A stretch of DNA of 59,681 nucleotides, the filler included, from Dirinaria sp. TL-2023a (taxonomy: Eukaryota): assembly GCA_051941275.1 (NCBI GenBank). It is 11 parts of 11 records of this genome, joined end to end, with 100 filler letters (N's around TTAATTAATTAA, not from the genome) between each part and the next. Parts side by side here need not be neighbours in the genome. Positions count along the whole stretch, not along the records: positions 38,124 to 43,448 come from JAVEBF010001685.1; positions 43,549 to 48,870 come from JAVEBF010001686.1; 9 more parts are not named here. One strand, given 5' to 3'. Made by a program: the position numbers and the translations under genes. The notes beneath the pieces were generated by a model. That model saw only the letters and a list, made by a program, of their open reading frames with translations. It made no database searches and was not told where the DNA came from. Numbering within the stretch: position 1 is the stretch's first letter; each line of letters starts with the position of its first letter. Positions 8,587-57,500 of the stretch are shown here, in pieces.

Positions 8587-10910
8587 GGTAAGGTAGCTTG
8601 TAACATTCTTTGACCCCCATGGTCTTATTGACCTTTCGAGCTAGCATGACATAAGCTCGAGAGCACATCACACTTTTGGACTTGTGGAAAGCAGTACGGC
8701 AAAGCAGTTCAAGTTCAAAAATGATCGTACATGACCCGCTTCCCGAGCAAAAACACATCCGTCAAGCAACCACAAATGGAGAAAATAACAGACCGCGATA
8801 TTGGCCTTCCTGTAGAGAAACACGGAAAGAGACTTGATCCCACTACCATCCGCTCGATTGCTATCTTACTTCCGATTGAGATGGGTGTTATGGTTGTTGT
8901 CATTATACTTGACCCACCATCTGATCCATAACAATTGGTGGCATCAACGAGCCGATCTAGTCGTGTACGCGCTTCCTGCGCAAAAATGTCGTCGTCGATC
9001 CTTTTGCTAGGTCTGTCGACATGGCTTCGAAAGCTGCTTGCAACGCTTCTGCTATCATGAACTTATAGGATCAAGGTACTTCATTTACTCGATGCGATGA
9101 TAGGATGCGAGCTCTTTTTTTTTTTTTCAAGCAAAGACGATTTCACAAATTGATGATCATCTGATTGGCCATGGAAGCACCATCGTCAAATCGAGATTTC
9201 GTTAAAGAATGATTTTAGGATAAAAAAGGGGGGAAAGAAGAGAAGCGGGAAAAATTGATAGATGAGATTAGGTGCTGGGGAGGAAGGGTCGGTGGGGAGA
9301 CGGAGTAGAGTCGAGTAGTGAAGTGCTAAAAGTTCTTTTTTTTTTCTTTTGTAATATGATTTTGTACCGCTGTGAGGGAATAGATATAGGATCCTCCTAA
9401 GCACGAGGTACTACCTTAGATATTCCTGAAGAGTGTTCTAACATCAATGCATACACTAATTGCCTGGGGGAAATCGATCTTTAAAGATTTTGTTATGAGA
9501 GTGCTCAGGAAAAGATAAATGATCTAGATACAAATGTCAATGATACACATACTACTGGCGGAGAGACGTCTACACGTGATCATCATGCTCACTTTCTAGA
9601 CCTGCGAGGTCCACTTTGCTCACACTGCCTCTGTGTGCTGACTTTCTATTTTTCATTTCCAAGATAGTTTCAAGTGTTCTTGAAAATTATATTGCTATTT
9701 TTATAAATCTTTTGAGATAAGCAGGGTAATTGCTACTTCGTCTGGGATTGATCAAGAAAAGGCCAAAGGCGTGATATATAGCTATGTCTTTTTTTTTTTC
9801 GATTGCATGGGATCTTATGGTTGGTTTTCAAAGGTTGTAGTCTTTTTGATAGATGTGAGTGTTTGGATATCTTTTTTTTGTTCGCGGGAGAGGAGATGAA
9901 GTTAGGTCATGAACGCACGGTATCTCGAGAACTTTTACCCTGCACTTAAATTTTTGTGATACGCAGCTAAAACGGCGTAGCAGTATCTATGATCATCATA
10001 AGCGACCCAGTCAGCGTCACTGCGTCGAAAGCTATTTAAGCTGAAAATCCCCGTTTGACTTACGCTTGTCATTTGTCTGCATAGTTCAATATTCTTGGAC
10101 CCAGATCTAGGGTATTCGTAAAAGTTCGTGATTAGCTCTTGGCTTCAGCATCGTTATTAGATCGCTATCTTCAGTAATTCTGGACGCTGCAAAGTATACA
10201 TACGTCAGGAATTGGGATTTGGTTTGTTAAAATATAGTCTTGTCCAAATTGTCATATTTCAGTGCGTCACAATGTAGTATGCTTGATCTGTAGTGAGAAC
10301 CGCGACGTTTAACAGCTATGTTGAGGCTTCTTGAAGTGGCGAAGTCTGTATTATTTGATGAACAATCAAGCACTTAAGAGATTTATCAAATCTCCTCGAG
10401 TAAAGAAGCCGATCTCGATAAGCTATCAGATCCCAAAATCCGGTCTATCGTAAACTTTCACAAATTTCGTCTGAATGAGCGAACCTCGATATTTGAACGG
10501 CATCCAATTTTGGAGATTTTTGAAAAAATTTAGAAATCGTGCTTAAGATGACTTCAAGACATGTCAAAGCTTGAAAGGACAGATATTGGCACAACCTCAT
10601 CGACAAAGAATGCAGTCGAAAGCGTGCTCCACGAAGAGAGAATAATAAATAACTTTGTAATCAGTGCCGTCAAAAAATACTCAAGCCAGTACCGCTCTCA
10701 ACCCGCGAAAGATGGACAAAATATTTGACAAGTTGGATACGGGAATGAGGTCACAGGGTACGGATTATAACAAGTGACTTTCACCTATATGTTGTATCAC
10801 AGCATGGGACNNNNNNNNNNNNNNNNNNNNNNNNNNNNNNNNNNNNNNNNNNNNTTAATTAATTAANNNNNNNNNNNNNNNNNNNNNNNNNNNNNNNNNN
10901 NNNNNNNNNN

Positions 10911-14200: not shown

Positions 14201-15115
14201 AGAACTTATCTAGATATTCGCGAAAAGTGTCGTTGATATATTTCTAAAACGAGACAGATTTATTGCATAAATCGAAGAGCATGACTAGATACTCGAAAAG
14301 ATCGAAACGAGTACGAAAAACAGTTAATGTTTCATCTTTTTCTCTGATTCGAAGTTTATTGAACGCGCTGATGATATCTAGTTTCGTGAATATCTTAGCA
14401 CGACTTAGACGATTGAGAGTCTCGAAGATTAAGAGCAGAGAATAATGCTTTTTAACAGTGATGACATTAAAATCTCTATAATTCACGCAGAAACGAAGTT
14501 CTTCTTCGAATTTCTTGACGAACAGAACAGAGACGATCGTTTGAAAGCGACTAGCTCGAATAAATTCTTTTCTAAAATTCTCATCTAGATATCGACGAAA
14601 TTCTAAAACCTCATCACGACTCATGTCGTACAAGACGAAGACTGAGATTTGAGTATCTTTCTTGAGATGTATGACGTGATCGTAGAGTTTATACAAAGGC
14701 AGAGTATTTGTTTTAATTTTGAAGAAGACATTTAGATAATCGTGATATTGCAGAAACAGAATGATGACTGAGTCAACGTTTTTGTTTCGTCGATAGAATT
14801 TAAACTTCTTTCGAGTGACGACTGTGACTAAATGAAGTTTCTTTTTCATTCGATACAAGACTAGACGATGATCTCGATCATAACTGCTGATCTTGATACT
14901 TTCGTAAAGAGACGAAAGTTTTTTGTTCTGACAAAGACTCGAGATTTCAGATAAAGAATAAAAAAAACGTGACGAAATAAGACTCAGATAGATGTTTATT
15001 TCTTTCAAGATTAAGCTGAACATCTCGAAATTCTTGAAACGAGTAGCACGATCAAAATCTCGAGTTCTCAACTCTGCAATATCGAGTTGTATAAAAGATC
15101 GAGTGTTCTGCTGTG

Positions 15116-15624
15116 TGTCAAAGACCCAACCTTGGTTAGATAGGTTTCCCAATAATAAAAGTCCCGACATGACCAAAAGACTAACTAAATCAAGTCGAAG
15201 ACTTGGTGTCTATCTTACTACTTATGTTTCAGAATCGTAACATTATCTCGATCCCTCGGCTTAGCTTCGTCCCGAAGCTAGCGTTGAGAGAAGTGAGGAA
15301 ATTCAAGACCCTGTAGAGAATGCTAGCTAATCAGAGTGACTCATGACGCTCAGAAATCAATGTACGTCTATCGAAACAAGTAGTCGCCCCGAGCTTAGAT
15401 AAGCTCTCAGTCGACAGATCTCGTCGAAAAACAACTCTTCAAGCGTTCGAGCTGAGATTCTAACTCAGAATCTTGCGACCGTGTTGACTTGATTTAATGT
15501 CAAAGACTCAACCTTGGTTAGATAGGTTTCTCAATGGTAAAAGTCCCGGCATAGTCAAAAGACTAACTAAACCAAGTCGGAGACTTGGTGCCTATCTTAC
15601 TACTTATGTTCCAGGATCGTAACA
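15116..15624 (-). mobile_element. TRIM-like miniature non-autonomous LTR element nested in the Gypsy pol region
   Basis: Two 127-bp direct repeats (15116-15242, 15498-15624) with TG...CA ends; 255-bp non-coding interior; perfect TSD CTGTG at 15111-15115 and 15625-15629; purine-rich tract before the minus-strand 3' LTR. Confidence 0.92.
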
Positions 15625-16070: not shown

Positions 16071-16497
16071 ATTAATTTTTCAAAGAGAATACTGAATGAG
16101 ATGAAAAATTGTTCATCTCGTTTAGATTTTCTTGATTTTAAAGTTTTCAGATTCGCTGAGATTTCTGAGAGAACAGAAACTCTTTTTCTTCTCGAATAGT
16201 GTTATAAATTTAAATCGAGAACTAACAACAATGAGCGAGACAAAAAGAGAAGAATATGANNNNNNNNNNNNNNNNNNNNNNNNNNNNNNNNNNNNNNNNN
16301 NNNTTAATTAATTAANNNNNNNNNNNNNNNNNNNNNNNNNNNNNNNNNNNNNNNNNNNNATAGTGCTCCCTTTTGGAAAAAAAGAAAAAGAAAAAAAAAA
16401 AAAAAAAAAAAAACAAAACCGACACAATGCCACCGGGGGTATCTTATGCTTCCAGAAACACCAGGAGAAATCCTTAAGAGTATGCACAAATCGACGC

Positions 16498-21707: not shown

Positions 21708-22021
21708 NNNNNNNNNNNNNNNNNNNNNNNNNNNNNNNNNNNNNNNNNNNNTTAATTAATTAANNNNNNNNNNNNNNNNNNNNNNNNNNNNNNNNNNNNN
21801 NNNNNNNAAAAAAAAAAAAAAAGAAAAAGGTATGTTGGAGGTTTCGTAGTAAGAACTTTGACTTCGAACGTCGATTGATTATGCTTCATAGATAACAATT
21901 TAAGAGTGGGGTTTTTAAAATGGAGAAAAAATCGCTTAGATTCGGTAGAAAGGTTAAAGGTAACTAAGATCTATCTACCTAACCTTCGCTATTTTTTTTT
22001 TCTGGAGGATGCTGGTATGGA

Positions 22022-27147: not shown

Positions 27148-27247
27148 NNNNNNNNNNNNNNNNNNNNNNNNNNNNNNNNNNNNNNNNNNNNTTAATTAAT
27201 TAANNNNNNNNNNNNNNNNNNNNNNNNNNNNNNNNNNNNNNNNNNNN

Positions 27248-31602: not shown

Positions 31603-33175
31603 GTGTTTTGCTCTATACGCCTTTTCTTTTTCTTTTTTCTTTTTTCTTTTTTTTTTTTTCAGGGATCCGTTTCACCAGAAACTGTACTCTTTATATCATA
31701 CGACTCACCTCGATTTCTGCATGGAGTTCTTGGAAACTTTTCCTTTTTTGACAGACAAACAGACAGATAGACGAATAGACAGAACATATCCATAAAGAGC
31801 AGCTACAGAATCCTACTACGTCACGCATCAATCAGAAAAGACGCACTTAAACCAAACAATTTTCTCAATGATCCCACTGCCGCCCACACCATCCTACTCT
31901 AATACCACACCCCCGTGACCTTACTACCCACATCGCTCTCCCCACTCATCGTGTTTTATCTATCAATATCTCTCTCAAAAGTGTTTTTCTAACACCCTCA
32001 ATCTATCTTCCTTTAACGATTTGCGTATTTAACGATGACACGTTCGTGATGAATCAGCTCGTGAAATCATCGCTGTTTGAAACTCGTCACTTTGTCAGAG
32101 CAATTGAGTCGGGATCCTTAAAAAACTTCAGGAATTCTAAAAATCAGAAGCCAAACTCCCCTCCCCTATATAATACCTCCCCAACTAAACCAAACCGCAA
32201 CACATACTCGAAATACCTCACTTCAGTCTTCATCTGACATATCTTTCATCTCATTAAAAATTTGCGTAACTGACACCGCCCCCCTCTCTTTTAAAAACAT
32301 ACGCTATATGAAACCTGTCTTACGTTATCAAGACGCCTGCACTCGTACTTCCCTCTTTTGAAAAAAAAAAAACACCAAAAAAAAAAAGGGAGCGCGATAA
32401 TTGATTTACAACGACCACCACCAACCAACCAGCCAAGCTTAGGATCAGTTAAAAAAGCTGTACTGCAGGTAGTATTATAAATCTCGAATTGCCTGATGGT
32501 GCAGTGGAAGGGAAAATTTCCGTTTTCTGCTTCCCATAATGGCCTCAACATCCAAGTGCCACCTCTCTTCTGAGGGATTACTTACCNNNNNNNNNNNNNN
32601 NNNNNNNNNNNNNNNNNNNNNNNNNNNNNNTTAATTAATTAANNNNNNNNNNNNNNNNNNNNNNNNNNNNNNNNNNNNNNNNNNNNATGAATACTGGGTG
32701 GGGGTAAAGATGTTATGTATACAACAATCCACCACTAACTAATATTCTGCCTACCTTACCTACCTTAGGCATGGTGACTCGGGAAGATTGTGATTACTCT
32801 TCCCTATTTTCTATTCCCCCTCCCCAAAAACCTTCTCGCTCGTTTTTTCTCTCTCCTGCTGTTGGGAGCATGTTGTTGTATGTATGGGTCTTTTGGCTTG
32901 ATGCGGTGTGTGTGCTCTATCTATTTAGCTCCTTCCGGAATCGGGATTTTTGTTGGGATTTAGAGTTTTCTGTTTTTCACTCTTTGTGGACAATGTGGCG
33001 AACTGGAGGGAAGAAGTCTTTCCGGGGTCATCAGATGGAAGATTCCTTCTTCGTTTTGCATGGTTGCTACCGGAGGAGTGATAAACTCCTTATTGAGACT
33101 GCGTTGCTGCTATTGCGCAGAACCTATGGCTCCAACAGAAGCTATCATGACTCGGGCTCGGCCTTCTTGATGGAA

Positions 33176-38023: not shown

Positions 38024-40136
38024 NNNNNNNNNNNNNNNNNNNNNNNNNNNNNNNNNNNNNNNNNNNNTTAATTAATTAANNNNNNNNNNNNNNNNNNNNN
38101 NNNNNNNNNNNNNNNNNNNNNNNTCTTGAATAAATGTCCATTTTCCTGCACAGAATTATGACAGGCATGATGCCCAGCTTGCATAGACTCTGAATTGATC
38201 CAGTAGTGGAGTGAAAAGTGTAAGCATGCTAATGGTTCAGATGCGAGAGATATGAGACCGGTAAGTGTGTGTGCGCACTTAGTGGCCTGTGGATTGGTAC
38301 GTTGATTGATTCTATTCCTTTTTCTTAATTCCTCTGGCTTTGGCATTGGTATAATTTTAGTGACTTGTCTTTTCGATAATAACTTTTCATTGACAGCCTA
38401 GTCCATTAATTGTTATCTTGCGAATACGATCTGTCATGTTTGCATGGAAGGGTTGAGATGATCTTTTTTGTAGTCCTGAAACCAGCATGCTGCCAGAGAT
38501 TCGCTGGAAAGTTATACCAGAAAGTAATCACAAAGAAGTCACCAGTTCGAATTTGACCGTGAGCAGATAGAGAAAGAACCCATGATAGACACATGGCTAG
38601 CCTAGTTCATCTACGCATATGATCGCTGCTTGAAGGTAGCTTTCGATCGAGTAGGGAGCCAGATTATCCCAACGTACCCCTGCGCATTGTCTATCACAAG
38701 GTTTGCAGTAATTTCAATATATGGGCGAAATATTCGTAAATGGTCTCAGGTTATGAGATATAAAGAGGGAACCTCAGGAGCAGTGAACATTCGAAGTTAC
38801 CGAGAGAAAGATCTGTAAATGAAAGGTTGAAGTTTGAGGATGAAGAAAAAGCAAAGGGTGTTTAATCCTCGGTAAGGCTGTCATTGAGGTGTCAATGGTT
38901 ACGCCGAGGAGGTAAATAGGGATCAGGACATAGAAAAGGTGATTAAGGTCGTTATAGTATAATATCACGGCGCCGTTCTTAAAACTCGCGACTATAAATG
39001 ATGGTTACAGCAAGCCAATAGTCTGTGCTGGCACCAGTCCAACGAAATTAAGATTGCTCATATAATTGCTATGTGTAGCCGAGAGTGTAGCACTTTGCTG
39101 AAATGGCAGTAGCCTGAAACGCTCTCATTGAAGAAACCACCCTCCCATGATGCTCGTAGTATCTGGCGTAGCATCCAGCGTATCATGAAGTCTGGACGTA
39201 TGTATAGCGATTTACATCCAACAAAATTGATAAAATCTTACCAGCCAGTTAAGTCGAGTGTTGGCACAAGAGCATCGCTCTAGACGTGCGTAAAGAGCAT
39301 TCAAGAAGATCAGATTTTATACTTCTTCAAGGCTTTTGATGGGATCCCTTAATCATTTGCTCTCTGAGAGAGCAGCAGCTACATCAAGGTCGCGAGAAGC
39401 CTGAAAAATGCTGCTATCAACCACAATATGACAACAAGCGATACTTTTTTTGTTGAAAATATCGCTTATCTCTAGCATCTTGACACTGTGTACATCATGC
39501 AATCGAAGACGAGTATAGAATCCTATCTTAAATCATCAAAACTGGAAGGAGTTTTTGATAACGAACGCAGGAACGTTTCGAAACAAGTTCGATATCAGTC
39601 TTGTGAAGGGGATCTAAGTAGATCACTTGGTGTATCTACAACGTGAGCTTGTTTCATGTTCCCGTGAAATTCTGATACAGAGAATCATGTCTGTAATCAT
39701 TATGTTGGTTTTTATATCGACGTCAGCCAGCGCTCAAATTAGCTTACTTGCTGATTTAAAGTCGCTTGTAGAGAGAGGAAAAGAAGAAGAAGAAGACAAT
39801 AAAAAGAAAGAGAATAGAGAATGTCAAACTCACTCGAAAAGAAATGTAATATAATGACACTGAACAAATTCAAAAAAAGGGGGAGGGGGAAAAGACAAGA
39901 ATATCCCGACCCCCGTCTTGTTCAACACTGCAATTCTCGCTCTGATATAGATAACTCATTCTGATTTCGTTTCCCTGGTCTAAACACTATGATATAGAGA
40001 TCAGGAGAGTTCAAAAATAATATGAATGCATTCGTCAAAAGCCCCCAAAAAAAAAAGAAAAAGAAAAAAAAAAAGAAGAAAAGTAAGGGGGGCTCTGGTG
40101 GGACTCGAACCCTCACTCTCAAAAATCACAAAAGAT

Positions 40137-40231
40137 AGGAACCCGACTGCACATCAGCGCCAGCACTCTGGACTAGCGGGGTTTCATCCCTACTATCTCG
40201 AGCAGCCCTCTGCACCATCATCGGGATTCCT
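40137..40231 (-). ncRNA. Unassigned structured 95-nt Pol III-type RNA, copy 1
   Basis: 93/95 identical to copy 2 while flanks diverge; terminal stem AGGAAUCCCGA/UCGGGUUCCU; A box 40207-40217; T-run; downstream B box GGTTCGAGTCC 40101-40111. Confidence 0.65.
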
Positions 40232-40306
40232 GGAAAAGACTTTTTAATTTAAAATCATATGTTTTTTATTAATTCATTTATTTTTTGTTTTTTATGTGTT
40301 GCTTCG

Positions 40307-40417
40307 TGTCAAAAGGATCCTGACTCTCTTGACGACATGATAATCATCAAAAGATCAGCTAAATCAAGTCGCTGACTTAATGTTCTATCTGATTACAAAT
40401 GTTCCAAGGTCGTAACA
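40307..40417 (-). mobile_element. Solo LTR related to the TRIM LTRs at 15116/15498
   Basis: TGTCAAA...TCGTAACA ends; last ~70 bp align with the TRIM LTR (caaaagatcagctaaatcaagtcg...tgttccaaggtcgtaaca vs caaaagactaactaaatcaagtcg...tgttccaggatcgtaaca). Confidence 0.75.
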
Positions 40418-40594
40418 CTTTTGAATCATGTTATATCTCGATGTTTATCTGACAAGTACTTATATATCTTAATTATTAACTTGTTAGCTAGACTATAGCA
40501 ATTGCTTTCAAGCAAAAAAAAAGTGGTTCATTTTATATTGCTGTAAATAATCTTGATTATAAGTTCTTCGAGTAAAGAAGACTCATTCATTTCA

Positions 40595-40694
40595 TGTTAG
40601 AAAATAAGATCTAATCGTTAAAAAATCGACCAACATGTTTTGAATAAACTATCAATTCTTGTTTCACTATATAGCGACTGCGTATATCGTAACA
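40595..40694. mobile_element. Probable second 100-bp solo LTR
   Basis: TGTTA...TAACA inverted termini; near-perfect TSD TTTCA/CTTCA. Confidence 0.5.
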
Positions 40695-40793
40695 CTTCAA
40701 ATCAATAAAAAAAGAGAAAAAGAAAAAGAAAAAGAAAACAGAAAATGAGCAAGAGGTGGTTCGAACCCACGACCTTTCAGAAAAACATCAAAA

Positions 40794-40888
40794 AGGAACC
40801 CAACTGCACATCAGCGCCAGCACTCTGGACTAGCGGGGTTTTATCCCTACTATCTCGAGCAGCCCTCTGCACCATCATCGGGATTCCT
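40794..40888 (-). ncRNA. Unassigned structured 95-nt Pol III-type RNA, copy 2
   Basis: TATA-rich 40906-40918 upstream; A box 40864-40874; ends GGTTCCTTTTT; B box GGTTCGAACC at ~40757-40767 within a tRNA-3'-half-like remnant. Confidence 0.65.
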
Positions 40889-43853
40889 TAAAAGACCAAC
40901 CCCAATTATAATATATATCTTCTATTCAAAAAAGATTTTTTTCATATGGCTCATGTCCTACTCGCGTTTATTCAGCATGATGGGCGCGACTAAGATAATG
41001 AAACATGCTGAACTACAACGCAGACTCTGTAGCGATTCAACGCGCAGTGTCATGATGTTTTCCAATATTTCAGTGCGTCTGAATAGCTGGAAGGTCAAAG
41101 CTCGTAGTTTCACGCCTTGGGAACAGCCAGCAGGTTTGTCGGGATGTCAATGAAAGCGATTCGAGAGACACATTTCAAGCTCTATCTTCTTGGCCCCACA
41201 AGCTCATGAATCCACTTCCAGAGTGGATTGAAACGCTTGGCCATCTTTAAGGCTCGATCTAAAACGTATAAAGGTTTCTGAGGTGTCACTGTTAAAGTTA
41301 GATGAAAGCGCCTTGCGTTCTCGATAAAGCTTGTGATATCCGCTCGCTTCGAATGACTGCTTCGATACTTCTGCTTCGATCTACTCACCGACACTATGCC
41401 TCGAACGGGTTTTCAAGATCTTGTCTTTACGTTTCTAGTCACAAAGGCTTCTGTCGGTGCGCGCTGGCGTGGTACATGTGTGCCTGCTATAGCCTACTTA
41501 GTCGCTTTGACATTCTGCCGCACAAATCCGAAGGGCATGCTTTCACGGAAGAACTCTTGCTGAGAGTAGACTGTGGATTGAACACCATTAGTACTCGAAT
41601 TTAAGAGCTGGCAAAGAGCATTGGGGTAGTCTGATTCAATTCTACTGATTGCAGCACAGGTGTTGCGTCTCGCTACGCAAGAAGTCTGTGGACTACTAGG
41701 ATTCATCAGCTAAGGGGCTCGAACGTAGTAGGGTGGCTACAATCAAAAGCTGAGAAGGGTTCGCGCCTAGCCTTGTAAAGAAACGTCGTAGTTTCTCACT
41801 CTTATTCGGCCAGATCGAATAATTCTAGTTTAGGCTCCGTTTTATGATCTATGGGTCTGGCTAACACGCTTGACCACAGAGGTTCCCCAACGAGATTGGC
41901 AAGGCCAAAGCTTCATCAACAGCAGAATACATCCTTTTGTGACTGAAATTGTTGGCTCTTGAGTTTGCGTGTTTTTGTCTTGATCTTTGGAGCTGAAGGA
42001 CGAGACCTCATGTACGTTGCCAGGCTGCAATATCGCTTCCCATCGCAAAATTTCCTTGCAACTTTTTGTTGAAACTATCTTGTTCATACTTTAGAAGAGG
42101 AAATATCCTGACAAACTTTTCTGCTTCAGTTCCTAGATGTTCCTTGTCCCTACTTTTTGCACGCAAAGGATTTTAGAGTGGAGGATATTTTGGGCCGCGA
42201 CTGTAATCTTAGACAAGCTCTTCTAGGAGCTATGGACAAGAATACATTGGGAGAGCACGCTCGAGGATGTCATGCAGTGATGAAGTTGCTATAGAGGCTC
42301 GAGGACGACGAGGCGAAAGATATGTTGACTCGTGGTTGAGCTACAATCTTTGTAAAAAGCGAGGTGGTGGAGATCCAAGGAAATGTGGGGGCTAGGATGG
42401 CGAGCTGGTTGGAAATGAAGTCTCAATCTGGTGTCTTTAATTCATATTGACACGAGGTAGATATGGATACTGTGGGAGGATTTTATCAGAGGGGTCGTAG
42501 GTGCGACTATGGCGCCCCCATTGTCTTGCCTGTGTGGTGGAGCTGCAGATGTTGTATCTCCTGTTCCGGGTTTGAAAAGACGGAAGTAGGAAGATGGTGC
42601 GCTGTCAAGCATCGACCTGATAAAGAGAATCTGGCTGGGTCACGGGACTAATGGCGCGCCCTAGCCTAAGGCGTCTGGTGAACCAACATACCATAATCAC
42701 GCGGTCGCTATCATAGTGCAGGCCTATTTATGCATCAGGCTCGTTTTCCACGGCGGTTGATCAGGACGAGTAGCCAAGATGCCAGAATGGATGCTTGATA
42801 GTTGTTCGCTTTGTGCCTAGCCTAAAAATTCCGAAGAAGGCTGTTGGCTCGCGAATGCAAAATACTGTTGGGACATTTGGACTGCCTCGAGTCGATATGG
42901 CCTCGCCCTCATGCAGTACTAAGACTGTCCTTGAGACACAGCAGTGAGGCAGGCCACATGGGCTGGAGTTATATTCCTATTGGCTCTTGTAGATTTTTAA
43001 CATGAAGATCTTTTAATTGGACAGGTCTGCTTAGTCAGGACTGCGATACCTAGATAATTTCGGCGCTGGATGGCTCGATGTTGGACAAAGGAATCCCTCT
43101 TACTTCAACAAAGAGCCTGATGGTAACTTGACCGCATCGAGGTTCTGATGGCAGTACTGTCGAGCAGCGACCCGTAAGAGTGGATCAGCGTGGGGGTGCT
43201 GAGAGTAAGTCCAAGAGAGTAAAAGTCCAATGAACTCAGCTTTGACACCGTTGGATCAATAGAGACGTCCTTTCCTGAAGAAGTCCTCCGCTAATTAATA
43301 TTGAAGAGGACTGAAAGTCAGACAACATTTATTATATTGACGGAACAACGAATCGGCGTCGGGCATAACGACCTGAAGCAACAAAAACAAAACGGATTGA
43401 CGGAATAATAGATAGCGAAAGAAATTAAAAGCCTACTGATGGCAGAACNNNNNNNNNNNNNNNNNNNNNNNNNNNNNNNNNNNNNNNNNNNNTTAATTAA
43501 TTAANNNNNNNNNNNNNNNNNNNNNNNNNNNNNNNNNNNNNNNNNNNNCCTAAATCAAAAGGCTTATGTTTCCTACGAAAAGGTTCCATCGGCTTAGTGA
43601 AATCTCGAAAATCAGATTTGTACATTGCCCCTTTCGGGCTTTCAAAATATATACATTGAAGAAGAAACAAAAAACCGGATGCTAGGCTAATGAGTCGCCG
43701 TCACCATGCTCTAGGTATGAGTGGCTCGGAAAGCTTAATTGTCGTCCATGCGATAAAAATGCGGCCAAGGTGGCAAAGTGCTTTTTGAAAAAAGAAAAGA
43801 AAAAAAAGGAGTAAAAACTATGCTGGAAAAAGATTTCGAGCATGCTCGAACCC

Positions 43854-48250: not shown

Positions 48251-49007
48251 GTTTTCATTTACTGCTTCCTTACGAGCAGATTGCTCGGTTTGTGCCTCGA
48301 AAAGAGAAGAGATTCCCGTGCAGAACATATGGACAGAAACGCGGCGCGCATATTCGCCAGTATCGCCTACCGGAAAATATTTTTTGATATGATAATGTAC
48401 TTTAGATAAGCGCCGTTCCGCCCATATCTGGGATGGCGTGCGTTGCGATTAGGACTGCGCATTAAATTTCAAGGTAAGGTACTATCAGGTCGCATGTGAT
48501 AGTTCTCCAGCTCCGTTAGTATACTAGTAGATCTTATCATATACTTGTACGAGATGCCTCTTGGGGACAAGGTTTCCTGCATGCACACACATATTCCTCC
48601 CCCCCCCCCAAACAAAAAAAAAAACAAAAACAAAATAGAATTAAAGCTAGGACTTGCTAGTAGAAATCATACAGATCAAGATCGAGTAAGTTCCTGGCGT
48701 GTGAGTGAATACTGTAAGGGGGGAAAAAAAAAAAAAAAAAAAAAAAGATCGCGATTCCAGTTCCACACATGATGGTGATGTACATGCAAAAGAACCGGTT
48801 CTCGTCAGAAATAAATCGATAAAATTCGAAAACAACCGTGTCTCCTCAAAAGTCTCCCGCCTCCTTTCCCNNNNNNNNNNNNNNNNNNNNNNNNNNNNNN
48901 NNNNNNNNNNNNNNTTAATTAATTAANNNNNNNNNNNNNNNNNNNNNNNNNNNNNNNNNNNNNNNNNNNNGGGGGAAAGGGGGAAGGGGAAAGATATCAA
49001 TGCTGAC

Positions 49008-49109
49008 CTTTTTCAAAAATTTGTTGTAGACCTGCTTGGCTGTGCGAACTCTGGCGGCCTTCCCTGCGGACACCACCACACCATAGGCGGAGCGGATTTT
49101 CTTGTCCAT
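49008..49109 (-). CDS. MRPS17: Mitochondrial ribosomal protein uS17m, exon 1 only (rest beyond gap)
   Basis: GVVVSAGK..RVRTAKQVYNKFLKK followed by a GTCAG donor; divergent from VID27. Confidence 0.55.
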
Positions 49110-49498
49110 AATCCTGATTATCGAACACAGACGGAAGAGCGCAATACTAATAACGAATCCGTATCGTCTTTCGAATCCATTGCAATTGTTAAGCGAAACT
49201 TGCAAGGAGATTTAGCCCTCCATATGTATAGTACAGTGGGTGAGAGGGAGACAAGACTGCGAGCTTGGCAATAGATAAATCTGTAGCGGAAGCTCGCGCC
49301 TACGGTTGATCTCCGGGCCGACGACTGGAGCTTCCAATTCTCAAACAGGTTCGACAGGCTGCATCAGATGCACACACCGGCTGCCTGCAGCTTTTCTGAC
49401 ATTCTGAATCCTTTGAATCTAAGGGCATAAATTGCGCCCAACAACCCCACCCTCCTATGTAGAACAACCAAGCCCAACGATCCTTCCACGCCGTCATC

Positions 49499-52035
49499 AT
49501 GTTCATGTTACGCAACGGTGCGTTGATTCTGTGCCAAAAGCCTCCAAAATGACGTATTTCAGTAGTCCATGCTAATATTCATAATTTTGCAGTCACAAAA
49601 TACTTGTTCGGCGACACCTCAAAGGAGTCAATAGTAGAGATCCCGCAAGGACAGCTTTATCTCGTCCGCCCGCTCTCGCCCAAGGGTTACTCCGAGCTCA
49701 TTTTCAAGGATGCTGCCGCTACCATAAGAAGGACAGGGCAGGAATTCCAATACCAGCTGGTGGTGCAGAGAGCATATGAGGAAGGCGAAGAGGAGCTTCT
49801 AGCGGATGAGGATGGTGAAGATGGGCTCTCGGAAAGCCTGGGGGCCGAAAAGGACGAGAAGACGTTCCTGCTGGATGAGAGCCTACATTTCCGGTCTGAG
49901 ATAAGAGAAGGAGGGGAGAAAGTCCTGGCCTGGAGAGACTTGAGCGGGGATGCTGGCGACCTATACGAGTTCGTCTGTGACAGCAGCGTTCAGCCTGGTG
50001 AGGTGGGGACGTTCGAAATGGTCGCAATCAAGTGCCAATACGAGCGGAAATTCCGGAAACATCAAGAGGCTGCTACCGAGGCGGATCTACAGGAATTCAA
50101 CTTCACAGAACAGCCGATACCGAGCGCTAGTCCCATGGCGACCCAGAATGTGAAGTCGACTATTACAGGCTCATCTCCACAGTCCAAGAAGTTCACCGAT
50201 AGGCAGAACGCCGAGCTCGCAACGAAAGCAAAGTCAGGCAAGATGAAACCATCAGTTCAAGAAAGGGAACAGACCCCAACCGAGGCGCCGAAAGCAACAG
50301 TACATCCGGTTGGAACCGCCGTCCTGGCAAAGGAGAGAGCTGAACTACACCTCTTCGACTTTCAGTCTGGTACCTTCATCTTACAGGATTCCAACGTAGT
50401 CGCCACGGTTTCGGAAGTAGGCCAATGGCAATACTGGTTGCAGATAATGAGCAGCGAGAAGGATTGGCTGGGGCAACCTGTCGTGGCGGACATCAATCCC
50501 GTCTTCAATTTCGAATACCTATCATTTATCTTCAATCACTACACGGATGACGGCTCCGCATATTCGTGGCTTCTGCGATTCAAGGACCAGGAAACGGAGG
50601 AACGCTTCCAGGAGGGTTTGATGCAGGCGCTGTGGGAGCAGCTTAACGAGACCAAATGGAAGAAGACAGACAAGGATGACCAGCAATATGTTCTCGACGC
50701 CTTCCAAGACTTGACCATGGAGGATGCACCTGAGGAAGAAGAGGATGAAGCAGACGAGGAAGCCAAGGACGACGGCCAAAGAAGCGAGCATTACGATTCT
50801 GATGAGTCTGAAGATGATGTCGTCGTTCGAGACGAGGACGGGAATGTCAACTCCCAGCTCGCAGTTGGTTACAAGCATGATAGGTCGTTCGTGGTACGAG
50901 GATCGAAGATCGGTGTCTTCAAGCATACTCCAAACAACAACCTCGAATTCTCAACCAACATTTCCAAGGTTGAGACACCGGGAGGCAAGCTCTTCAGTCC
51001 TAAGAAAGTCATGTTACATCAAGAAGACTCCAATATGATCCTTCAAAACGAGAACGATCCTCATTCGCTGTACCGTATGGACCTAGAGTATGGCAAAGTG
51101 GTAGACGAATGGAAGGTCCACGATGATGTTCCCGTCAAAAATTTCGCACCGTCCGAGGTAAGCCAGTCCTTCCGAGACGGGATACGCACCACACTAACCA
51201 GTGACAGAAATTCGCCCAAATGACCAGCGAACAGACATTTCTCGGCATATCGAACAACGCACTCTATCGCGTTGACCCCCGCCTCTCTGGCAATAAGATG
51301 GTCGACTCCGAATGCAAACAATATACTGGCAAAAACGACTTCTCTGTTGCAGCAACTACCGAGAAGGGCTACATAGCTGTCGCTTCCAACAAAGGTGACA
51401 TTCGCCTCTTTGACCGCTTAGGTATCCGCGCAAAGACTCAGATACCAGCTCTGGGCGAACCAATCATTGGTCTCGACGTCTCCGCCGATGGGCACTGGGT
51501 CCTCGCCACATGCCGTACTTACCTGTTGCTCATTGATGCTCTTCAGCACGGTGGCAAGAATGAAGGCAAATCAGGCTTCGAACGAAGCTTTGCCAAAGAC
51601 AGCAAACCACAGCCGCGGCGCCTTGGCCTTTCACCGAGCCATGTCGCGCAGTTCCAGTACGAGACGAAAGCGCCGCTCTTGTTCACGCCGGCGCGCTTCA
51701 ACACCGGCGTTGATGATAAGGAGAGCTCCATCATCACCGCCACGGGACCTTTCATCGTGACCTGGAACATGAAGCGGGTGCTCGCCAACCGCAAAGACCC
51801 TTACACAATCAAGCGCTACGAAGAGGAGGTCAAGGCGGACGACTTCAAATACGGGACCGATAAGAACGTGATCGTCGCCCTGCCCAATGAGGTCAACATG
51901 GTCGCCAAGCAAACGTTCAAGAGGCCCACTCGCGAGAGCATTGCCGGGTCCAGTAGGCTTAGTGGAGGTGGGAGGGCAAGTGGACGCCGAAGCGGTAGGC
52001 TAGCAAGAGGTAGCATTGTGGAGGAGGCTTATTAA
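49499..52035 (+). CDS. VID27: Vacuolar import and degradation protein Vid27; introns 49518-49592 and 51158-51207
   Basis: IPQGQLYLVRPLSPKGYSELIF, PH-like region, NSQLAVGYKHDRSFVVRG, beta-propeller C-terminus. Confidence 0.93.
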
Positions 52036-52788
52036 GTCACTCAACAACGGGTGGTACAGGTGGAGGATGAAGCTACCAAGATGCTCCGGCAGCTGGCGTT
52101 CTGGCTGATTCTGACTATTATGATATCCCAACGGCAGTGTCGGCTTTCAGAACGCGCATCAGATACTTGTTACAGAAATAATGCAGTTATGCATTTATGA
52201 ACTTTGGTCTATGGCATGGTTGCGTGGGAAGCCCGTCCTGTACCGGTGGTATCCCCAATTCCTAGAGCGGGAGCGGTGGGTATATTGTCATGAAGAAATC
52301 TGTGATATCCTTTTCTAAGTTTCCGCCAGTTCAGAAACAACTGGGTTGGGCATTTCTGGTGAGTCTGCACCACTGTCATTATTGTAGAAACATTATTGCT
52401 GGATAAGGCAGAGGCAAGATACATGACGCTGAAAGCTCCCTCCCGTCCAGTATGGACAAGGGGCCATTAGGGAGTAAAGTACAAGTGCCTTAGCAGCATT
52501 GCTCCCAAAAGGGGAAAAGCCGGTCGAGGCGCTGACTAAGTACATTAGTTGTAGCGCGGCAGCTCGGTAGATGCCGTGCGGCTCCCAGGGACAAAAGTCG
52601 GCGAGGTCGGTTCGTCGGTTATTAGTCGGTTATTATTCGGAGGCTTCAAACGTCACTCTTCATGTATCTCCAAAACACCCCAGTCTGCTAGAAACCCACT
52701 TGGAAACCGGCTATCTCTATCTCTGCCTATCTTATGTCGCCATAGATCCAGTTATATTAAGATAATACATGCGAATCCAATCTCTCCA

Positions 52789-53928
52789 ATGACGTCCACG
52801 CCTGAATCTCCCGCACCCTCAACCCACAACAGCACATCCTCCTACCTCTCCTACCCAGTAACGCACGTCGTCTCGGGCCTGTACCGGCGCCTGACCGATC
52901 CTCCAGCATCGACGAAACCTGCACCGAACCCATCCTCCTCCTCCTCCTCCTCCAACCGGCCCGCGCCGCTGGACACGCACAATGGCGTCTACACCCCTCC
53001 TCACCGGACCGCCTCGCCCTTCCAACCTCCACCGCTGACTCCGCTCTCGCTGGCCGGCGTCCCGAAAGGCATGCCTCCGTCGGCGCAGATCCTGTCCGCG
53101 GCGCTGGCGGAGGAGATCCGGTTGCTGGTGCCGCCGCGGCTGCAGTTGGCCGAGACGTGGCGGCTGGTGTACAGCCTGGAGGAGGACGGCGTGAGTCTGG
53201 CGACGCTGTACAACAAATGCGGCGCGGGCTCGCTTCCGAAACGGAGTTCCTTTGTCCTTGCGGTGCGAGATGCTGCTGGTGGCGTAAGTACCTCCCTTCC
53301 TTTCCTTTTCCTTAATCCTTATCCCATGCCAAAATCGCGGGCCGCTCGAAATGCTTGCTCGCTTGCTTTGCTTCCTTCGCCCAAAATCTGACACAAACGA
53401 AACGTGTCAAAACAGATCTTCGGCGCCTACCTCACCGACGCCCCGCACCCCTCCGCCTCCTTCTACGGCACAGGCGAATGCTTCCTCTGGCGCGCCTCCG
53501 TGCTGCCCTCCTCCGCCATCCTCGCAAACCTGCCGCCCCCACCATCAGCCTCGGACTCCGACACCCTGGGCCGCAGCACCACGATCCTTTCCCCCACCAC
53601 CACCCATCCTACCACTTCATCATCATCATCTTCACACCTGCATCCGCACCAAAGCCGCGATACCTCGCCCTCGAGAGGAAGCGGCGCTACGACTCCAGAT
53701 CGCATCCGCTTCAAGGCATTCCCGTACAGCGGGGTCAATGATTATTTGATTTTCTGCGAGCATGGGTTTTTGAGTGTCGGCGGCGGGGATGGCAGGTACG
53801 GGTTGTGGCTGGACGGGGTGCTGGAGAGGGGCGTCAGTAGCCCGTGCATGACGTTCGGGAATGAAGGGTTGAGTGAGAAAGGGGAGAAGTTCGAGGTTGT
53901 TGGTGTTGAGGTCTGGTGTATCGCTTAG
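52789..53928 (+). CDS. OXR1: Oxidation resistance protein 1 (TLDc domain); intron 53284-53415
   Basis: LAEEIRLLVPPRLQL, WRLVYSLEEDGVSLATLY, FYGTGECFLW, SVGGGDGRYGLWLD, CMTFGNEGLS. Confidence 0.93.
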
Positions 53929-54526
53929 TTTAGTTTTTGGGGGGGAAAAAAGAAAAATTTGTGTGCAACGCACCCTTCTTCTACTTCTAATCCTTTTGTG
54001 CCGATCAAAGTATTACCTGAAAAATACATTTAGAAGCGGTCTTTTTCTCCCCCCCCTCTTCCCACCTTCCTTCCTTCAAGCTACCATACCTTCCCTATTT
54101 TACACGTAAGTCCCTTCCCTTCCCTTCCCTTCCCTTGGTACTCATCTTGCTACATGTTCTTTCAAACAGACCTTTTCCCCCACAATTCAAGGGTATGGGC
54201 ATGGGTATAAGCATGGTACATACTTCAGCCAAGCTCGTTCTATTTTTGTTTTCTTCTTTTTTTTTTTTTTTTTTTTNNNNNNNNNNNNNNNNNNNNNNNN
54301 NNNNNNNNNNNNNNNNNNNNTTAATTAATTAANNNNNNNNNNNNNNNNNNNNNNNNNNNNNNNNNNNNNNNNNNNNAGTGAAGATTGATTCTTCGCGCGC
54401 AAAAAAAAGCCTCTCTCTCATAAATTCGTAGTAGTCATCGTCTCACATCTCACTTCTTCCTTTACATCCATCCATTCCCCCCATTTTAGAATAGATGAGT
54501 AAAACGTGAGTTGCAACGAATCAAAT

Positions 54527-57500
54527 TCAGTAAACATAATGCGCCTGAGTCAAAGGCAACCGGGTCGCCGGCTCCGCTTTGCAGACCATTCCGTCTGCTT
54601 CTACGACCTGCGATATGGACATAGTGGAATTTGGGGTTAGTCATGCTCTGTATGTATTATATTTTCTCCAGCAGCAGACCTAAAAAAAAAAAAAAAAAAA
54701 AAAAAAGGGGGAAAACCCGAGAAAAGGAAAAGAAATCTCACTCACATAAGTTTCCGGGTCGACTTTCATTTTCGGCATGACGTCGTTGTATTTCATGTCC
54801 CTTTTGCCGATGTTGCGGCAGTTTTTCACGGCCTCGATGCGTTTCCGGAGATTGTAGGTCGCGATGGTGCCGGATTCGATGGAGGCTTGGGAGACGAATG
54901 TTAGGGATGTGTTGGGGACGAAGGCCTGTAGGAGGATTAATGGGATTAGGTATTTTGATTTTCCGTTTTCTTTATATTTCTCTTTTTTAGATCTACGGGC
55001 GTGAGGGTATGGTATAGGTTGGGTGGGAGCTTTTGATACGTACCCCAAACATAGGACGCATGATAACCGGCTCGACGGTTGGAATGGATGCGTTTGGATC
55101 TCCCTATCAGGACGTGAGCGAATATCTGGGAGGACCCCTCCTCAGGGATGGCTTACCATCTGCGCGTAGGAGATCATTCCACTCTTGATGACCATCTTTG
55201 GTTTGGTTCCAAAACTCACCGGGGTCCACATGACTAGGTCTGCGAGCTTACCAACTTCAACGCTGCCAAGGACGTGGCTCATGCCCTGAGCGATGGCGGG
55301 ATTGATTGTATATTTGCTGATGTATCGCTTGACGCGGAAGTTATCGGCCCCTGTACCTTCATCCTCCTTCAGTGTACCTCTCTGTAGCTTGTTCTTGTGA
55401 GCCGTGTTCCACGTGCGAAGGATGACTTCGCCACAACGACCCATGGCTTGAGAGTCGGAAGACATCATGCTGATAGCGCCCAGATCGTGTAGGACATCTT
55501 CGGCAGCGATTGTTTCGGCGCGAATCCGCGACTCTGCAAACGCCACATCTTCGGGGATGTCCTTTGTCAGATGGTGACAGACCATGAGCATGTCAAGATG
55601 CTCGTCCAGTGTATTGTGCGTGTACGGTCTAGTTGGGTTGGTGCTGCTGGGAAGAACATTGCCGTGCTCCACTACGGAAATAATATCAGGGGCGTGCCCA
55701 CCTCCAGCTCCTTCGGTGTGATAAGTGTGGATAGTCCGATCCTTGAATGCTTTGATCGTCTGCTCAACGAAGCCTGATTCATTCAGCGTGTCTGTGTGGA
55801 TAAGGCACTGAACGTCATACTCATCACAGACGTCAAGACATGTATCTATAGCTGTGGGAGTAGTGCCCCAGTCCTCATGCAACTTCAACCCGGCCGCACC
55901 CGCCATGCACTGTTCTTGCAACGCTCGTGCATCTGAATCGTTGCCTTTCCCAGTGATGCCAAAGTTGATGGGAAGCTCGTCACAGGCTTGGAGCATCTGG
56001 CGCAAGTGTGTTTTCCCAGGCGTGCAGGTTGTGGCACTCGTCCCTGCGCTTGGGCCTGTGCCTCCTCCGAGCATGGTGGTGATGCCCGCCGCAACTGCCT
56101 CGTACACTTGTTGTGGGCATATGAAATGAATGTGCGAATCTAAACCCCCAGCTGTGACAATGAGACCTTCCCCCGCGATAACATCCGTGCACGATCCAAC
56201 CACCATTGCCGGGTCCACGCCATCCATGGTATCCGGGTTTCCAGCCTTGCCGATGCCGACAATGACCCCGTTCTTGATGCCAATATCAGCCTTCAGTATA
56301 CCGCTCCAATCAACAATAAGGGCGTTGGTGATAAGTGTATCTAAAGACTCAGCGTCAGGTCGGCCACTGGCTTGACCCATTCCCTCTCTCAACGTTTTGC
56401 CTCCACCAAATTTACATTCGTCTCCGTAGCCCGTAAGATCTTTTTCCACTTTGATCCACAAGTCTGTTGAGCCTAAGCGGACCACATCCCCTGCAGTAGG
56501 ACCAAACATGCCGCAGTAAGCCTCTCGAGTCATTGAGAATGGCTCAAAAGAGGAAGTATCTGCTGCCGGATCAACTTTGTCTGCAAACCCTCCTTCTTGC
56601 AGCCTTTTCCGAATTTCCTCGACTCTTGAGAGATCGATGGGTCCCGAAGCAATGCCATTGCCTCCGCTGATTATCTTCCTTCCACCAATTTCTACTATAG
56701 TCACGGTTTTAGTGTCACCAGGCTCAAAGCGTACCGACGTGCCTGCTGCAATGTCCAGGAAGTAACCGTATGATTTGAGGCGATCAAATTCAAGCTGAGG
56801 ATTAGCTTCGATCAGGTGGTAGTGAGAGCCTATCTACAGCCTATATAAGCTGATCATTTCAGGAAGTTTGCTTGGTGGCTTGCGCACCTGTACTGGTCGA
56901 TCTCCTTTGCTCGTGACTTTAAGTTTCAGGCGCTTTCTACCTTCATGAAGCGTGATCTTCCCCTCGACGGTTTTCACCGCTCCAGACATCTTCATTTTAT
57001 CGTACTCTGAGGGATCGGGCAGGGGAAAGAGATCTTTCGACGGAATTGGGAGAAAGCTGCTGTAGAGGGCTTTTTCCAAATCGCCATCCTCCGAACCAAT
57101 GGGATGGTGGACTGTGACCAGGTATGTACCGCTAGGGAAGGTGCCCTCGACCATGAGCTCGGTGAATGACGACAGTACTGAGGGAAGGACATGGCGTCTC
57201 CCCAACATGGTCTTGCCAATTGACATGAGGTCGGCAACCGAATGGTTGCCATCGCGGATGAGCTGACCCCGGACTCAGCATTTGGTGCTCAGCATTTGAT
57301 GCTGCGCTACATCTTCAGACGTACTTCATGTAGGACGTGGGAGATCAGCGCCTGGTGGAAATGTCAATCTCTGCTATATAGAGGTTGAGACCGCTCTTAC
57401 GATAGCCTCGGCATGGTTTAGCTTGACTCCACGAGCCAAGCGGCGCTGTGCTAGCAGGCCAAATTGCGATATCACGAGCTTGTCGAGCTGGCCAGGTTTC

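Follow-up and report, generated by a model that had tools for sequence, protein, structure and literature searches.

A tandemly duplicated candidate small-RNA gene with Pol III-type signals and box C/D-like motifs in a lichen-fungus contig

A 95-base element occurs as a pair in one contig of a lichen-fungus genome bin, and it is moderately likely that the pair is a real small-RNA gene. Tentatively, the pair may have arisen by tandem duplication of a small-RNA gene that selection has maintained. Pol III would probably transcribe it from a split, SNR6-like promoter, and the product would be nearest to an orphan box C/D RNA within a long outer stem. The window, the whole stretch of DNA that was analysed (59,681 nt), consists of 11 unrelated contigs of ~5.3 kb with N spacers between them. 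The contig bearing the candidate contains no protein genes. One different contig of the window fits the affinity with Lecanoromycetes that had been suggested for this DNA, but there is no gene on the RNA contig by which it could be confirmed. A degenerate reverse transcriptase is present on another contig of the bin.

The copies and their immediate surroundings are as follows.

40231 to 40137, minus strand: copy 1, 95-nt conserved core of the candidate RNA, 5' end at 40231, 93/95 identical to copy 2
40888 to 40794, minus strand: copy 2, 95-nt conserved core, 5' end at 40888, 93/95 identical to copy 1
40234-40240 (copy 1) and 40890-40896 (copy 2), minus strand: common GTCTTTT upstream of the cores, 7/7 identical, possible start region or leader
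40045-40084 (copy 1) and about 40705-40752 (copy 2), minus strand: C/T-rich tract past the tRNA-like remnant, 3' limit of the detectable duplicated unit

The copies have the same orientation and a start-to-start spacing of 657 nt; the coordinates and the alignment confirm the near-identical pair with two differences given in the preliminary description. Both differences are transitions: G/A at element position 47 (40185/40842) and C/U at element position 87 (40145/40802). The core is a sharply bounded GC-rich island, with a GC content of 0.56-0.58 compared to 0.29 in the spacer. Upstream, the GTCTTTT sits 1-2 nt 5' of the element and none of 1000 shuffles reaches its score. Similarity is undetectable past 9 nt, and the next 250 nt upstream are like shuffles (z 0.5-0.7). 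The first 33 aligned columns downstream contain 26 matches, 3 mismatches and 4 gaps. These 3' flanks are homologous (their score is reached by 1-2 of 1000 shuffles) yet much more diverged than the core (Fisher test, core versus flank, p=0.001), and the drop in identity reported just outside the core is indeed sharp. Downstream similarity has a z of 6.8 over 250 nt and of 1.4 further than 110 nt. A covariance model built from the pair recovers no third copy in the 59,681-nt window (next best E=0.66). Because the flanks adjoining the core are homologous (GTCTTTT; 26/33), the arrangement points to one duplication of a larger unit, not two insertions. Under the favoured reading, a minus-strand gene for a small structured RNA, some 95-105 nt long, would have been duplicated in tandem. 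The RNA core would have stayed nearly unchanged through purifying selection or homogenisation while the remainder of the duplicated unit decayed.

In the predicted fold, the MFE on the minus strand is -38.2 kcal/mol for copy 1 and -36.1 kcal/mol for copy 2, and it is weaker on the plus strand (-29.5 and -26.1 kcal/mol, respectively). The z-scores of the folds are modest, from -2.0 to -2.55, the latter for copy 1. The MFE structure is identical in both copies and has a predicted outer stem of 10-11 bp (element 1-11 with 85-95). Position 47 falls within the loop of the apical hairpin. The change at position 87 converts a G-C pair to G-U on the minus strand; the plus-strand equivalent would be C-A. 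Both differences therefore leave the MFE structure unchanged, as had been claimed. Covariation is absent because there are only two near-identical copies. The modelled strand asymmetry and the G-U-preserving change favour an RNA over a DNA element.

It is unlikely that the pair is instead a young mobile or recombining element or a gene-conversion patch. As a mobile element, the pair would be a ~97-nt MITE, with the "terminal stem" as its inverted repeat, or the head of a retroposon that arose from a tRNA; as a gene-conversion product, it would be a recent patch in older, diverged tRNA-derived repeats. The core ends form an 11-nt inverted repeat (AGGAATCCCGA / TCGGGTTCCT) and the 5' boundary of similarity is sharp. 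TCTTTT is found on both sides of copy 1, but copy 2 has no matching 3' TCTTTT. Each copy is followed by a tRNA-like piece and a simple-sequence tract, but a poly(A) tail is absent and the internal T-runs are ill-suited to a Pol III retroposon. The gene-free contig, the reverse transcriptase on a different contig and the two transitions would also fit such an element. However, the 59.7 kb contain just two copies, which are neighbours and point the same way. Their homologous flanks argue for a single duplication, and the RNA-type behaviour of the fold favours an RNA.

Pol III-type signals surround both copies. The A-box-like sites come from a pattern scan; the T-runs and the TATA- or AT-rich tracts were read from the sequence.

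40207-40217 (copy 1) and 40864-40874 (copy 2), minus strand: A-box-like TGGTGCAGAGG, element 15-25
40101-40111, minus strand: strict B box GGTTCGAGTCC, 26 nt past copy 1, within a T-arm plus acceptor-like tRNA remnant
40758-40768: B box with palindromic GGTTCGAACC core, 27 nt past copy 2, strict on the plus strand and 10/11 on the minus strand from 40767
40133-40130 (T4) and 40125-40121 (T5), minus strand: T-runs of copy 1, candidate Pol III terminators
40794-40790 (T5) and 40785-40781 (T5), minus strand: T-runs of copy 2, candidate Pol III terminators
40917-40906, minus strand: TATATATTATAA, -29 to -18 of copy 2
40260-40241, minus strand: AT-rich tract upstream of copy 1

From these signals, the chance that the pair is transcribed by Pol III is judged to be close to even, though slightly below it. 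The strict B box GGTTCGANNCC occurs just twice on both strands of the 59,681 nt (0.38 expected), and its chance for a given 30-nt slot is about 1e-4. The scan of the window thus places a B box where the preliminary description had it, ~27 bp past each copy. The A box TRGYNNARNNG described at 40217 and 40874 is present in both copies, but the motif is loose and has 36 minus-strand matches in the window. The T-run after the stem is seen in both copies (T4/T5 and T5/T5); T4 and T5 are weak terminators in budding yeast, according to the available text of PMC4937561. The TATA-rich element noted 5' of copy 2 corresponds to TATATATTATAA, and copy 1 has the AT-rich tract.

The order of TATA or AT-rich tract, internal A box, T-run and extragenic B box is the SNR6-like order that had been proposed. 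It is the same as in S. cerevisiae SNR6, where TATA at -30 is followed by box A and then by box B beyond the terminator, as outlined in the accessible part of PMC9136082. Unlike SNR6, the candidate RNA is not U6 and has no Rfam U6 match, its A-B distance is about 100 bp rather than 202 bp, and its B box is just 26-27 nt past the RNA, in a tRNA-like T-arm remnant. In the proposed mechanism, TFIIIC would bind the internal A-box-like site and the extragenic B box, the latter persisting within a decayed tRNA-like T-arm, and TFIIIB would bind the TATA/AT-rich tract at about -30. Pol III would start in or just past the common GTCTTTT and stop at the T4/T5 runs. The resulting U-tailed transcript would be closed by the outer stem.

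A tRNA-like match spans 40091-40161 (mascRNA model, 19.8 bits, E 0.53). The downstream pieces had been described as two different tRNA remnants. Because the 3' flanks of the copies are alignable, they are more likely to be one diverged ancestral remnant. A decayed pair of intron-containing tRNA genes, in which the core is the 5' half plus intron and the downstream piece is the T-arm plus acceptor, is very unlikely. With its threshold lowered to 80%, ARAGORN models both copies alike, as a tRNA(CUA)-like gene in which a 27-nt intron sits at 37/38, the anticodon stem has 5 bp (AACCC/GGGUU) and the T-arm is the downstream one, but it returns nothing at the default and 90% thresholds, and the Rfam tRNA model is unmatched. 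The interval 40091-40161 has the size of a tRNA (71 nt); its acceptor stem pairs at 6/7 positions and its B box is perfect. However, the acceptor stems of the split model pair at just 5/7 and 6/8, in different registers, its D arm is unformed and position 33 is G, not U. T4/T5 runs fall inside the supposed tRNA, and the conservation block does not coincide with the tRNA boundaries.

No Rfam family is matched above threshold, with Y RNA, U6 and tRNA among those searched, and the RNA stays outside the known classes, as first described. The sub-threshold matches of the 116-nt query are all to box C/D families (4/4, 9.8-13.8 bits). Among metagenome loci holding the 18-mer, 0/45 extend past 19-30 nt, and the genome-contig and viral-contig collections contain no matches to the element.

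A fungal Y RNA, a stem-loop RNA made by Pol III and bound at its lower stem by a Ro60 (TROVE) protein, is the least probable identity and a highly improbable one. Like Y RNAs and stem-bulge RNAs, the candidate is a small Pol III-type RNA, about 95 nt long, whose 5' and 3' ends pair and whose tail would be oligo-U. If the stem is paired in another register, an 8-bp helix is followed by a bulged C9 and then by G10-C/U and A11-U. UCCCGAUGAUGGUG loosely resembles the 5' ends of vertebrate Y RNAs. However, the 116-nt query matches no Y_RNA, sbRNA or bacterial Y-like model at E<=10, and the predicted fold bulges U6, not C9. The geometry of the Ro60 site, a 3-nt bulge on the 3' strand (PMC4726728), is not reproduced by the candidate, whose 5' strand carries a loop of 4 nt. 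The Ro60-type stem of the preliminary description is not upheld on these grounds. Up to 2015, neither fungi nor plants had yielded a Y RNA or sbRNA candidate, according to the same review (PMC4726728).

The box C/D-like motifs occur in the following positions.

40215-40221 (copy 1) and 40872-40878 (copy 2), minus strand: C-box-like AUGAUGG, element 11-17, which drives the sub-threshold C/D matches
40184-40190 (copy 1) and 40841-40847 (copy 2), minus strand: C'-box-like GGGAUGA, element 42-48, reading GGGAUAA in copy 2 (site 47)
40158-40171 (copy 1) and 40815-40828 (copy 2), minus strand: candidate guide CCAGAGUGCUGGCG, element 61-74, directly 5' of CUGA
40154-40157 (copy 1) and 40811-40814 (copy 2), minus strand: D box CUGA, element 75-78, aligned as the D box in the Rfam sub-threshold match

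The C-like, C'-like and D motifs are in the right order and an antisense-type 14-mer adjoins D, which leads to a reading of the candidate as an orphan box C/D-like RNA, probably made by Pol III. Membership of the C/D class itself is possible but rather doubtful. The size (about 70-95 nt) is that of box C/D snoRNAs, and the spacing is plausible (13 nt, 7 nt, and 26 nt if D' is UCGA). Unlike box C/D snoRNAs, the candidate has AUGAUGG as its C box (consensus RUGAUGA, as quoted in PMC2780460), no clear D' and an outer stem as long as 10-11 bp. The MFE fold does not place C opposite D, and the conserved block runs on for 17 nt past the D box. Because 7 nt separate D from the closing stem, a canonical kink-turn is not predicted and the RNA is non-canonical for C/D. 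The Pol III C/D alternative raised earlier is thus supported by motifs that fit better than the Y-RNA idea, but not by the geometry or by any Rfam C/D family at threshold.

The candidate guide can pair over 14 bp with 5.8S positions 118-131 in rDNA from other fungal lineages, not the host's own. Pairing with <=2 G-U is found at 3 sites in 59 rDNA loci, and one-mismatch pairing in 8 further of the 28 rDNA loci that show this 5.8S segment. The chance rate of pairing is about 1% (random 14-mers, 59/5000; guide shuffles, 41/5000). The target hairpin covaries between fungi, with the CGCCAG stem in just 11/28 rDNA loci. Lecanoromycetes have another version of this 5.8S hairpin. In N. crassa, the single mapped 5.8S methylation given in the available text of PMC2780460, Am42, is elsewhere than this site.

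An ordinary, Pol II-dependent box C/D snoRNA in two copies, as independent genes or in consecutive introns of a host gene that is itself non-coding, is also unlikely. On this view, the T-runs, the B box and the tRNA-like piece would belong to a decayed tRNA gene that happened to be duplicated with the snoRNA, but GGGTTCGA is intact in both copies despite the diverged flank around it, and the T-runs come directly past the stem in both. Such a snoRNA would also carry C, C' and D motifs and a guide-like element, as the candidate does, and a non-coding host gene would account for the protein-gene-free contig. Most C/D snoRNAs of Pezizomycotina, including most of those of N. crassa, are intronic according to table rows in PMC2780460. 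The long C/T-rich tracts past each copy resemble polypyrimidine tracts, but good splice signals are absent at both copies: there are only GTCTGC/GTCAGC 137/145 nt upstream, and branch-point-like sites are as far as 133-194 nt downstream.

For the orphan box C/D-like RNA made by Pol III, the promoter element would be downstream. Yeast snR52 is a Pol III-transcribed box C/D snoRNA with its promoter in the 5' leader. In plant tRNA-snoRNA dicistrons (mentioned in PMC2780460), which are Pol III-made, the promoter is in the upstream tRNA. Li and Breaker (2017) describe an atypical snoRNA motif in which, according to the accessible text of PMC5640933, the C box reads AUGAUGY, the D box is CUGA and C'/D' are degenerate; the likeness of this motif to the candidate is by description only, and no Rfam model matched the candidate. 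The same text reports a guide complementary to 5.8S, 18S and 28S rRNA, and 74/81 of the examples are intronic.

The 95-nt core occurs twice on the minus strand of one contig. The copies are identical at 93 of 95 positions, lie 657 nt apart and differ at element position 47 (G/A) and position 87 (C/U), counted from the element's 5' end. The GC content of the cores is 0.58 and 0.56, versus 0.29 in the spacer between them. Searched with a covariance model of the pair, the window shows no third copy, even degenerate (next best E=0.66). The duplication is real and better than chance. The contig and the two copies are as follows.

38124-43448: contig with the RNA pair, 5325 nt, GC 0.425
40231 to 40137, minus strand: copy 1 of the core
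40888 to 40794, minus strand: copy 2 of the core

Upstream of the element, GTCTTTT, located 1-2 nt before it, is alone common to both copies. In the 250 nt upstream of GTCTTTT, the likeness between the copies is no greater than that of dinucleotide shuffles (z 0.5-0.7). Of 33 aligned columns in the downstream flanks, 26 match, 3 mismatch and 4 are gaps; this score is reached by 1-2 of 1000 shuffles. To judge from this alignment, the downstream flanks are homologous but far more diverged than the core (Fisher p=0.001 for core versus flank divergence). The homologous stretch spans the T-runs and GGGTTCGA, followed by a C/T-rich tract, and likeness between the copies is gone after about 110 nt. 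Because GTCTTTT and a related 3' flank are common to both copies, one unit of roughly 215 nt appears to have been duplicated. The near-unchanged core is explained by selection on the core or by local homogenisation.

The pair may instead be a MITE or retroposon relic. SINEs and MITEs are marked by many dispersed copies with target-site duplications; here there are only two adjacent copies within 59.7 kb. Two independent insertions explain the pair less well because the immediate flanks are related. In the metagenome scan, an 18-mer over the C box/A box matches 45 loci; each match is 19-30 nt long and due to chance, and most fall in coding DNA rich in GC. The scan of genome_contigs with a 3' 21-mer and the scan of viral_contigs with a two-part pattern each return no matches. 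An LTR or TRIM origin was rejected, as the repeats have no TG..CA ends, primer-binding site or polypurine tract and their 3' flanks are homologous. An origin as rDNA spacer is unlikely because neither end of the contig at 38124-43448 carries rRNA.

The minus strand folds at -38.2 kcal/mol in copy 1 and -36.1 kcal/mol in copy 2 (z -2.55 and -2.0), with one structure in both. The plus strand folds at -29.5 and -26.1 kcal/mol, and its structures differ between the copies. In the predicted minus-strand fold, position 47 is in the apical loop and the change at position 87 turns G10-C87 into a G-U pair; on the plus strand the latter is a C-A mismatch. The two substitutions are compatible with a minus-strand RNA in this model, although two events are no proof. 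The preliminary description had reported two copies 657 bp apart with two differences and with likeness dropping outside them, one difference lying in a hairpin loop and the other converting G-C to G-U in the terminal stem. The 93/95 alignment, the flank shuffles and the predicted fold bear this out. The element also contains direct near-repeats, CGAUGAUGGUGCAG near its 5' end and GCUGAUGUGCAG near its 3' end (40215-40227 and 40148-40159, minus strand), which are able to pair in the predicted fold because both hold a palindromic UGCA.

The copies are accompanied by Pol III-type signals. An A-box-like TGGTGCAGAGG is present at element positions 15-25; this is a loose motif with 36 matches on the minus strand of the window. 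Each copy is trailed by two T-runs, T4 then T5 for copy 1 and T5 both times for copy 2. Over both strands of the whole window there are two instances of the strict B box GGTTCGANNCC, versus 0.38 expected, and both are 26-27 nt past a copy. Since the flanks are homologous, the pair of B boxes represents one ancestral event retained twice. Each B box lies within a T-arm-like remnant. Between -29 and -18, copy 2 carries TATATATTATAA. In copy 1 the tract from -29 to -10 is AT-rich with no clear TATA box, and the first T-run is no longer than T4. Runs of T5-T6 terminate weakly in budding yeast (PMC4937561), and the need of this host may differ.

In the yeast U6 gene (SNR6), a TATA at -30 is followed by box A and, downstream of its terminator, by box B (PMC9136082). 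The copies resemble SNR6 in having the same order of upstream TATA or AT tract, internal A box, T-run and downstream B box. As sequence motifs, the elements of a split promoter are all present: TATA near -30, an internal A box, a T-run and a B box past the terminator. The motif scans support the proposed SNR6 layout, with an A box, a T-run, a B box about 27 bp downstream and a TATA element at copy 2.

A 71-nt tRNA-sized unit (40091-40161, minus strand) overlaps copy 1 at that copy's 3' end. Its acceptor-like stem (6/7) uses core bases; the unit also has a D-loop-like AGUCGGG and a perfect T-arm/B box, and it is without a D-stem or an anticodon stem. In Rfam it gives a weak tRNA-like match only (mascRNA model, 19.8 bits, E 0.53). 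This unit may be a relic of the tRNA gene that gave the downstream B box. The copies themselves fit decayed tRNA genes poorly. A weak tRNA(CUA)-like model with a 27-nt intron, using the downstream T-arm, is reported in both copies by ARAGORN at 80%; its acceptor and D arms are poor, and the T-runs fall inside it. ARAGORN finds no tRNA genes at the default and 90% thresholds, and the Rfam tRNA model has no match at E<=10.

Nothing near the element reaches the Rfam gathering thresholds, and U6, tRNA, 5S, SRP and RNase P/MRP give no Rfam match at E<=10, in agreement with the preliminary description, which could place the RNA in none of these families. A hammerhead (CUGAUG... with GAAA) was rejected by eye on the misfit of its order and core bases, and there is no Rfam ribozyme match. 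With a 116-nt query, all four sub-threshold matches are to box C/D families (sR22, sR21, v-snoRNA-1 and sR58; 9.8-13.8 bits), and matches at E<=10 rank as noise. The threshold of a curated C/D family is not reached (best 13.8 bits versus gathering scores of 40-75). Both box motifs are found, an RUGAUGA-like one towards the 5' end and CUGA towards the 3' end, and the sub-threshold matches align AUGAUGG as C and CUGA as D. The boxes are as follows.

Element 11-17: C box AUGAUGG, 6/7 to RUGAUGA
Element 42-48: C' box GGGAUGA, 6/7
Element 75-78: D box CUGA

The D box lies 17 nt short of where the conserved block ends, and the G/A difference between the copies sits in the C' box. The C-D'-C'-D spacing fits only with a poor UCGA at 31-34 as D'. 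Seven nucleotides separate D from the strong 10-11-bp outer stem, and the bases immediately beside C and D form a poor pairing (CCCG versus UGUG). The predicted fold is a rod, and C is not opposite D in the minimum free energy (MFE) structure. As modelled, the C/D geometry of the element is not canonical. The earlier suggestion of a C/D RNA as an alternative fits the C and D motifs; no C/D family is matched at threshold, and the modelled geometry departs from the usual one. The copies could also be intron-hosted snoRNAs, against which stand the poor splice signals around them.

The candidate guide, element positions 61-74 directly 5' of the D box, was compared with eukaryotic rDNA from contaminant contigs of bacterial assemblies, recovered in a 5.8S primer scan. 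The fungal 5.8S primer sequence has matches in at least 59 contigs that are catalogued as bacterial genomes or MAGs (loci L049-L107 in genome_contigs). One of these, L098, contains complete 18S and 5.8S sequences and LSU model positions 1-2260. This eukaryotic 18S-5.8S-partial LSU unit is complete in L098, so L049-L107 look like eukaryotic rDNA contaminants. The LSU rDNA from viral_contigs consists of a 103-nt LSU start only.

The 14-nt guide forms a gap-free duplex with 5.8S positions 118-131 of heterologous fungi, from which the host rRNA may differ. Among the matches listed, a duplex with at most two G-U pairs is found at 3 sites among 59 loci, and a duplex with one mismatch at 8 more of the 28 loci showing the segment. 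Equally good duplexes arise from random 14-mers of the window in 59 of 5000 trials (about 1%) and from shuffles of the guide in 41 of 5000. No other conserved guide target is found in 18S or LSU 1-2260, the sequences covered by this comparison. The 5.8S target is a hairpin with a stem that covaries among fungi; the CGCCAG stem is present in 11 of 28 loci among the matches listed. Lecanoromycetes have another version of this stem. In N. crassa, the one mapped 5.8S methylation is at A42, not at this site (PMC2780460). The predicted pairing with 5.8S is a lead rather than support for C/D membership. The element was rejected as a 5.8S pseudogene because its likeness to 5.8S ends with the 14 nt. 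On the D' side, a 10-11-bp guide match with two G-U pairs to 18S 1618-1628, overlapping the C box, was judged to be chance.

The closing stem had also been likened to the Ro60-binding stem of Y RNAs. The Ro60 site is a 7-bp helix in which one C bulges out, and its opposite (3') strand has a 3-nt bulge (PMC4726728). The likeness rests on a register of the lower stem with a bulged C9, which appears as an alternative only. The MFE and centroid folds bulge U6 and have a loop of 4 nt on the 5' strand versus 1 nt on the 3' strand, and the lower stem of a Ro60 site is not seen in them. Y_RNA and related covariance models give no match at E<=10 in searches with 1.4-kb and 116-nt queries. As of 2015, no Y RNA candidates had been reported from fungi or plants (PMC4726728); none were found in later literature, and the literature search on a fungal Ro60/TROVE protein returned nothing usable. 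The likeness to Y RNAs is not upheld, and the pair is read as an unassigned variant of kinds already known rather than as a Y RNA.

The likeliest reading of the pair, given somewhat less than an even chance, is a duplicated and maintained gene for a small structured RNA with an SNR6-like split Pol III layout and box C/D-like motifs. A fuller proposal is rather unlikely as a whole. It would make the pair a lineage-restricted Pol III gene of a lichen-forming fungus, in which the B box of a dying tRNA gene was co-opted to serve, as in SNR6, as a promoter element outside the gene. The product would be a new class of stem-closed RNA, ~95 nt long with a U tail and C/D-like boxes. It would act either as a non-canonical guide for methylation of the 5.8S hairpin or, bound by Snu13/La, in another role. 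If transcribed as proposed, the pair would add to the budding-yeast U6 gene a second natural case of a Pol III gene whose B box lies downstream and outside the gene, and would show a split promoter arising from a decaying tRNA gene. The non-coding RNAs of lichen fungi, a set that is almost unexplored, would also gain an unassigned small RNA, which may be a C/D-like guide made by Pol III. A mobile-element relic or an ordinary intronic snoRNA would be of local annotation interest only.

The window of 59,681 nt comprises 11 contigs, from 5360 down to 5305 nt, joined by N44-TTAATTAATTAA-N44 spacers at the following positions.

Spacer junctions: 5361-5460, 10811-10910, 16260-16359, 21708-21807, 27148-27247, 32587-32686, 38024-38123, 43449-43548, 48871-48970 and 54277-54376

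Features on different segments are therefore without physical linkage. The contig at 38124-43448 has no open frame longer than 134 codons. A Pfam scan of it gives no credible matches (26 of 34 overlapping frames of at least 55 codons at E<=1, two more at E<=0.001). Genes for VID27, PEX6, a urease and an MFS transporter are on other contigs and are thus not neighbours of the RNA pair. The VID27 protein (contig 48971-54276) matches a protein from a lichen-fungus genome bin with 100% identity across 94% of the query, and has 70-91% identity to many Lecanoromycetes proteins. For the contig with the RNA pair, the fungal taxon comes from binning alone, and its gene content gives no check.

The sole above-threshold Rfam match in the window is 5_ureB_sRNA (56100-56392, plus strand, 99.8 bits). 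It runs antisense to a urease exon; the gene is a fused fungal one (ORF 55142-56833, minus strand) whose domains are Urease_beta, Urease_alpha and Amidohydro_1. The match is most likely due to the conserved coding sequence of urease and not to a fungal sRNA. The AT-rich contig at 10911-16259 (GC 0.35) contains a weak match to reverse transcriptase (RVT_1) at 14244-15209 on the minus strand (E 7e-5, under the Pfam cut-off), which looks like a degenerate retroelement.
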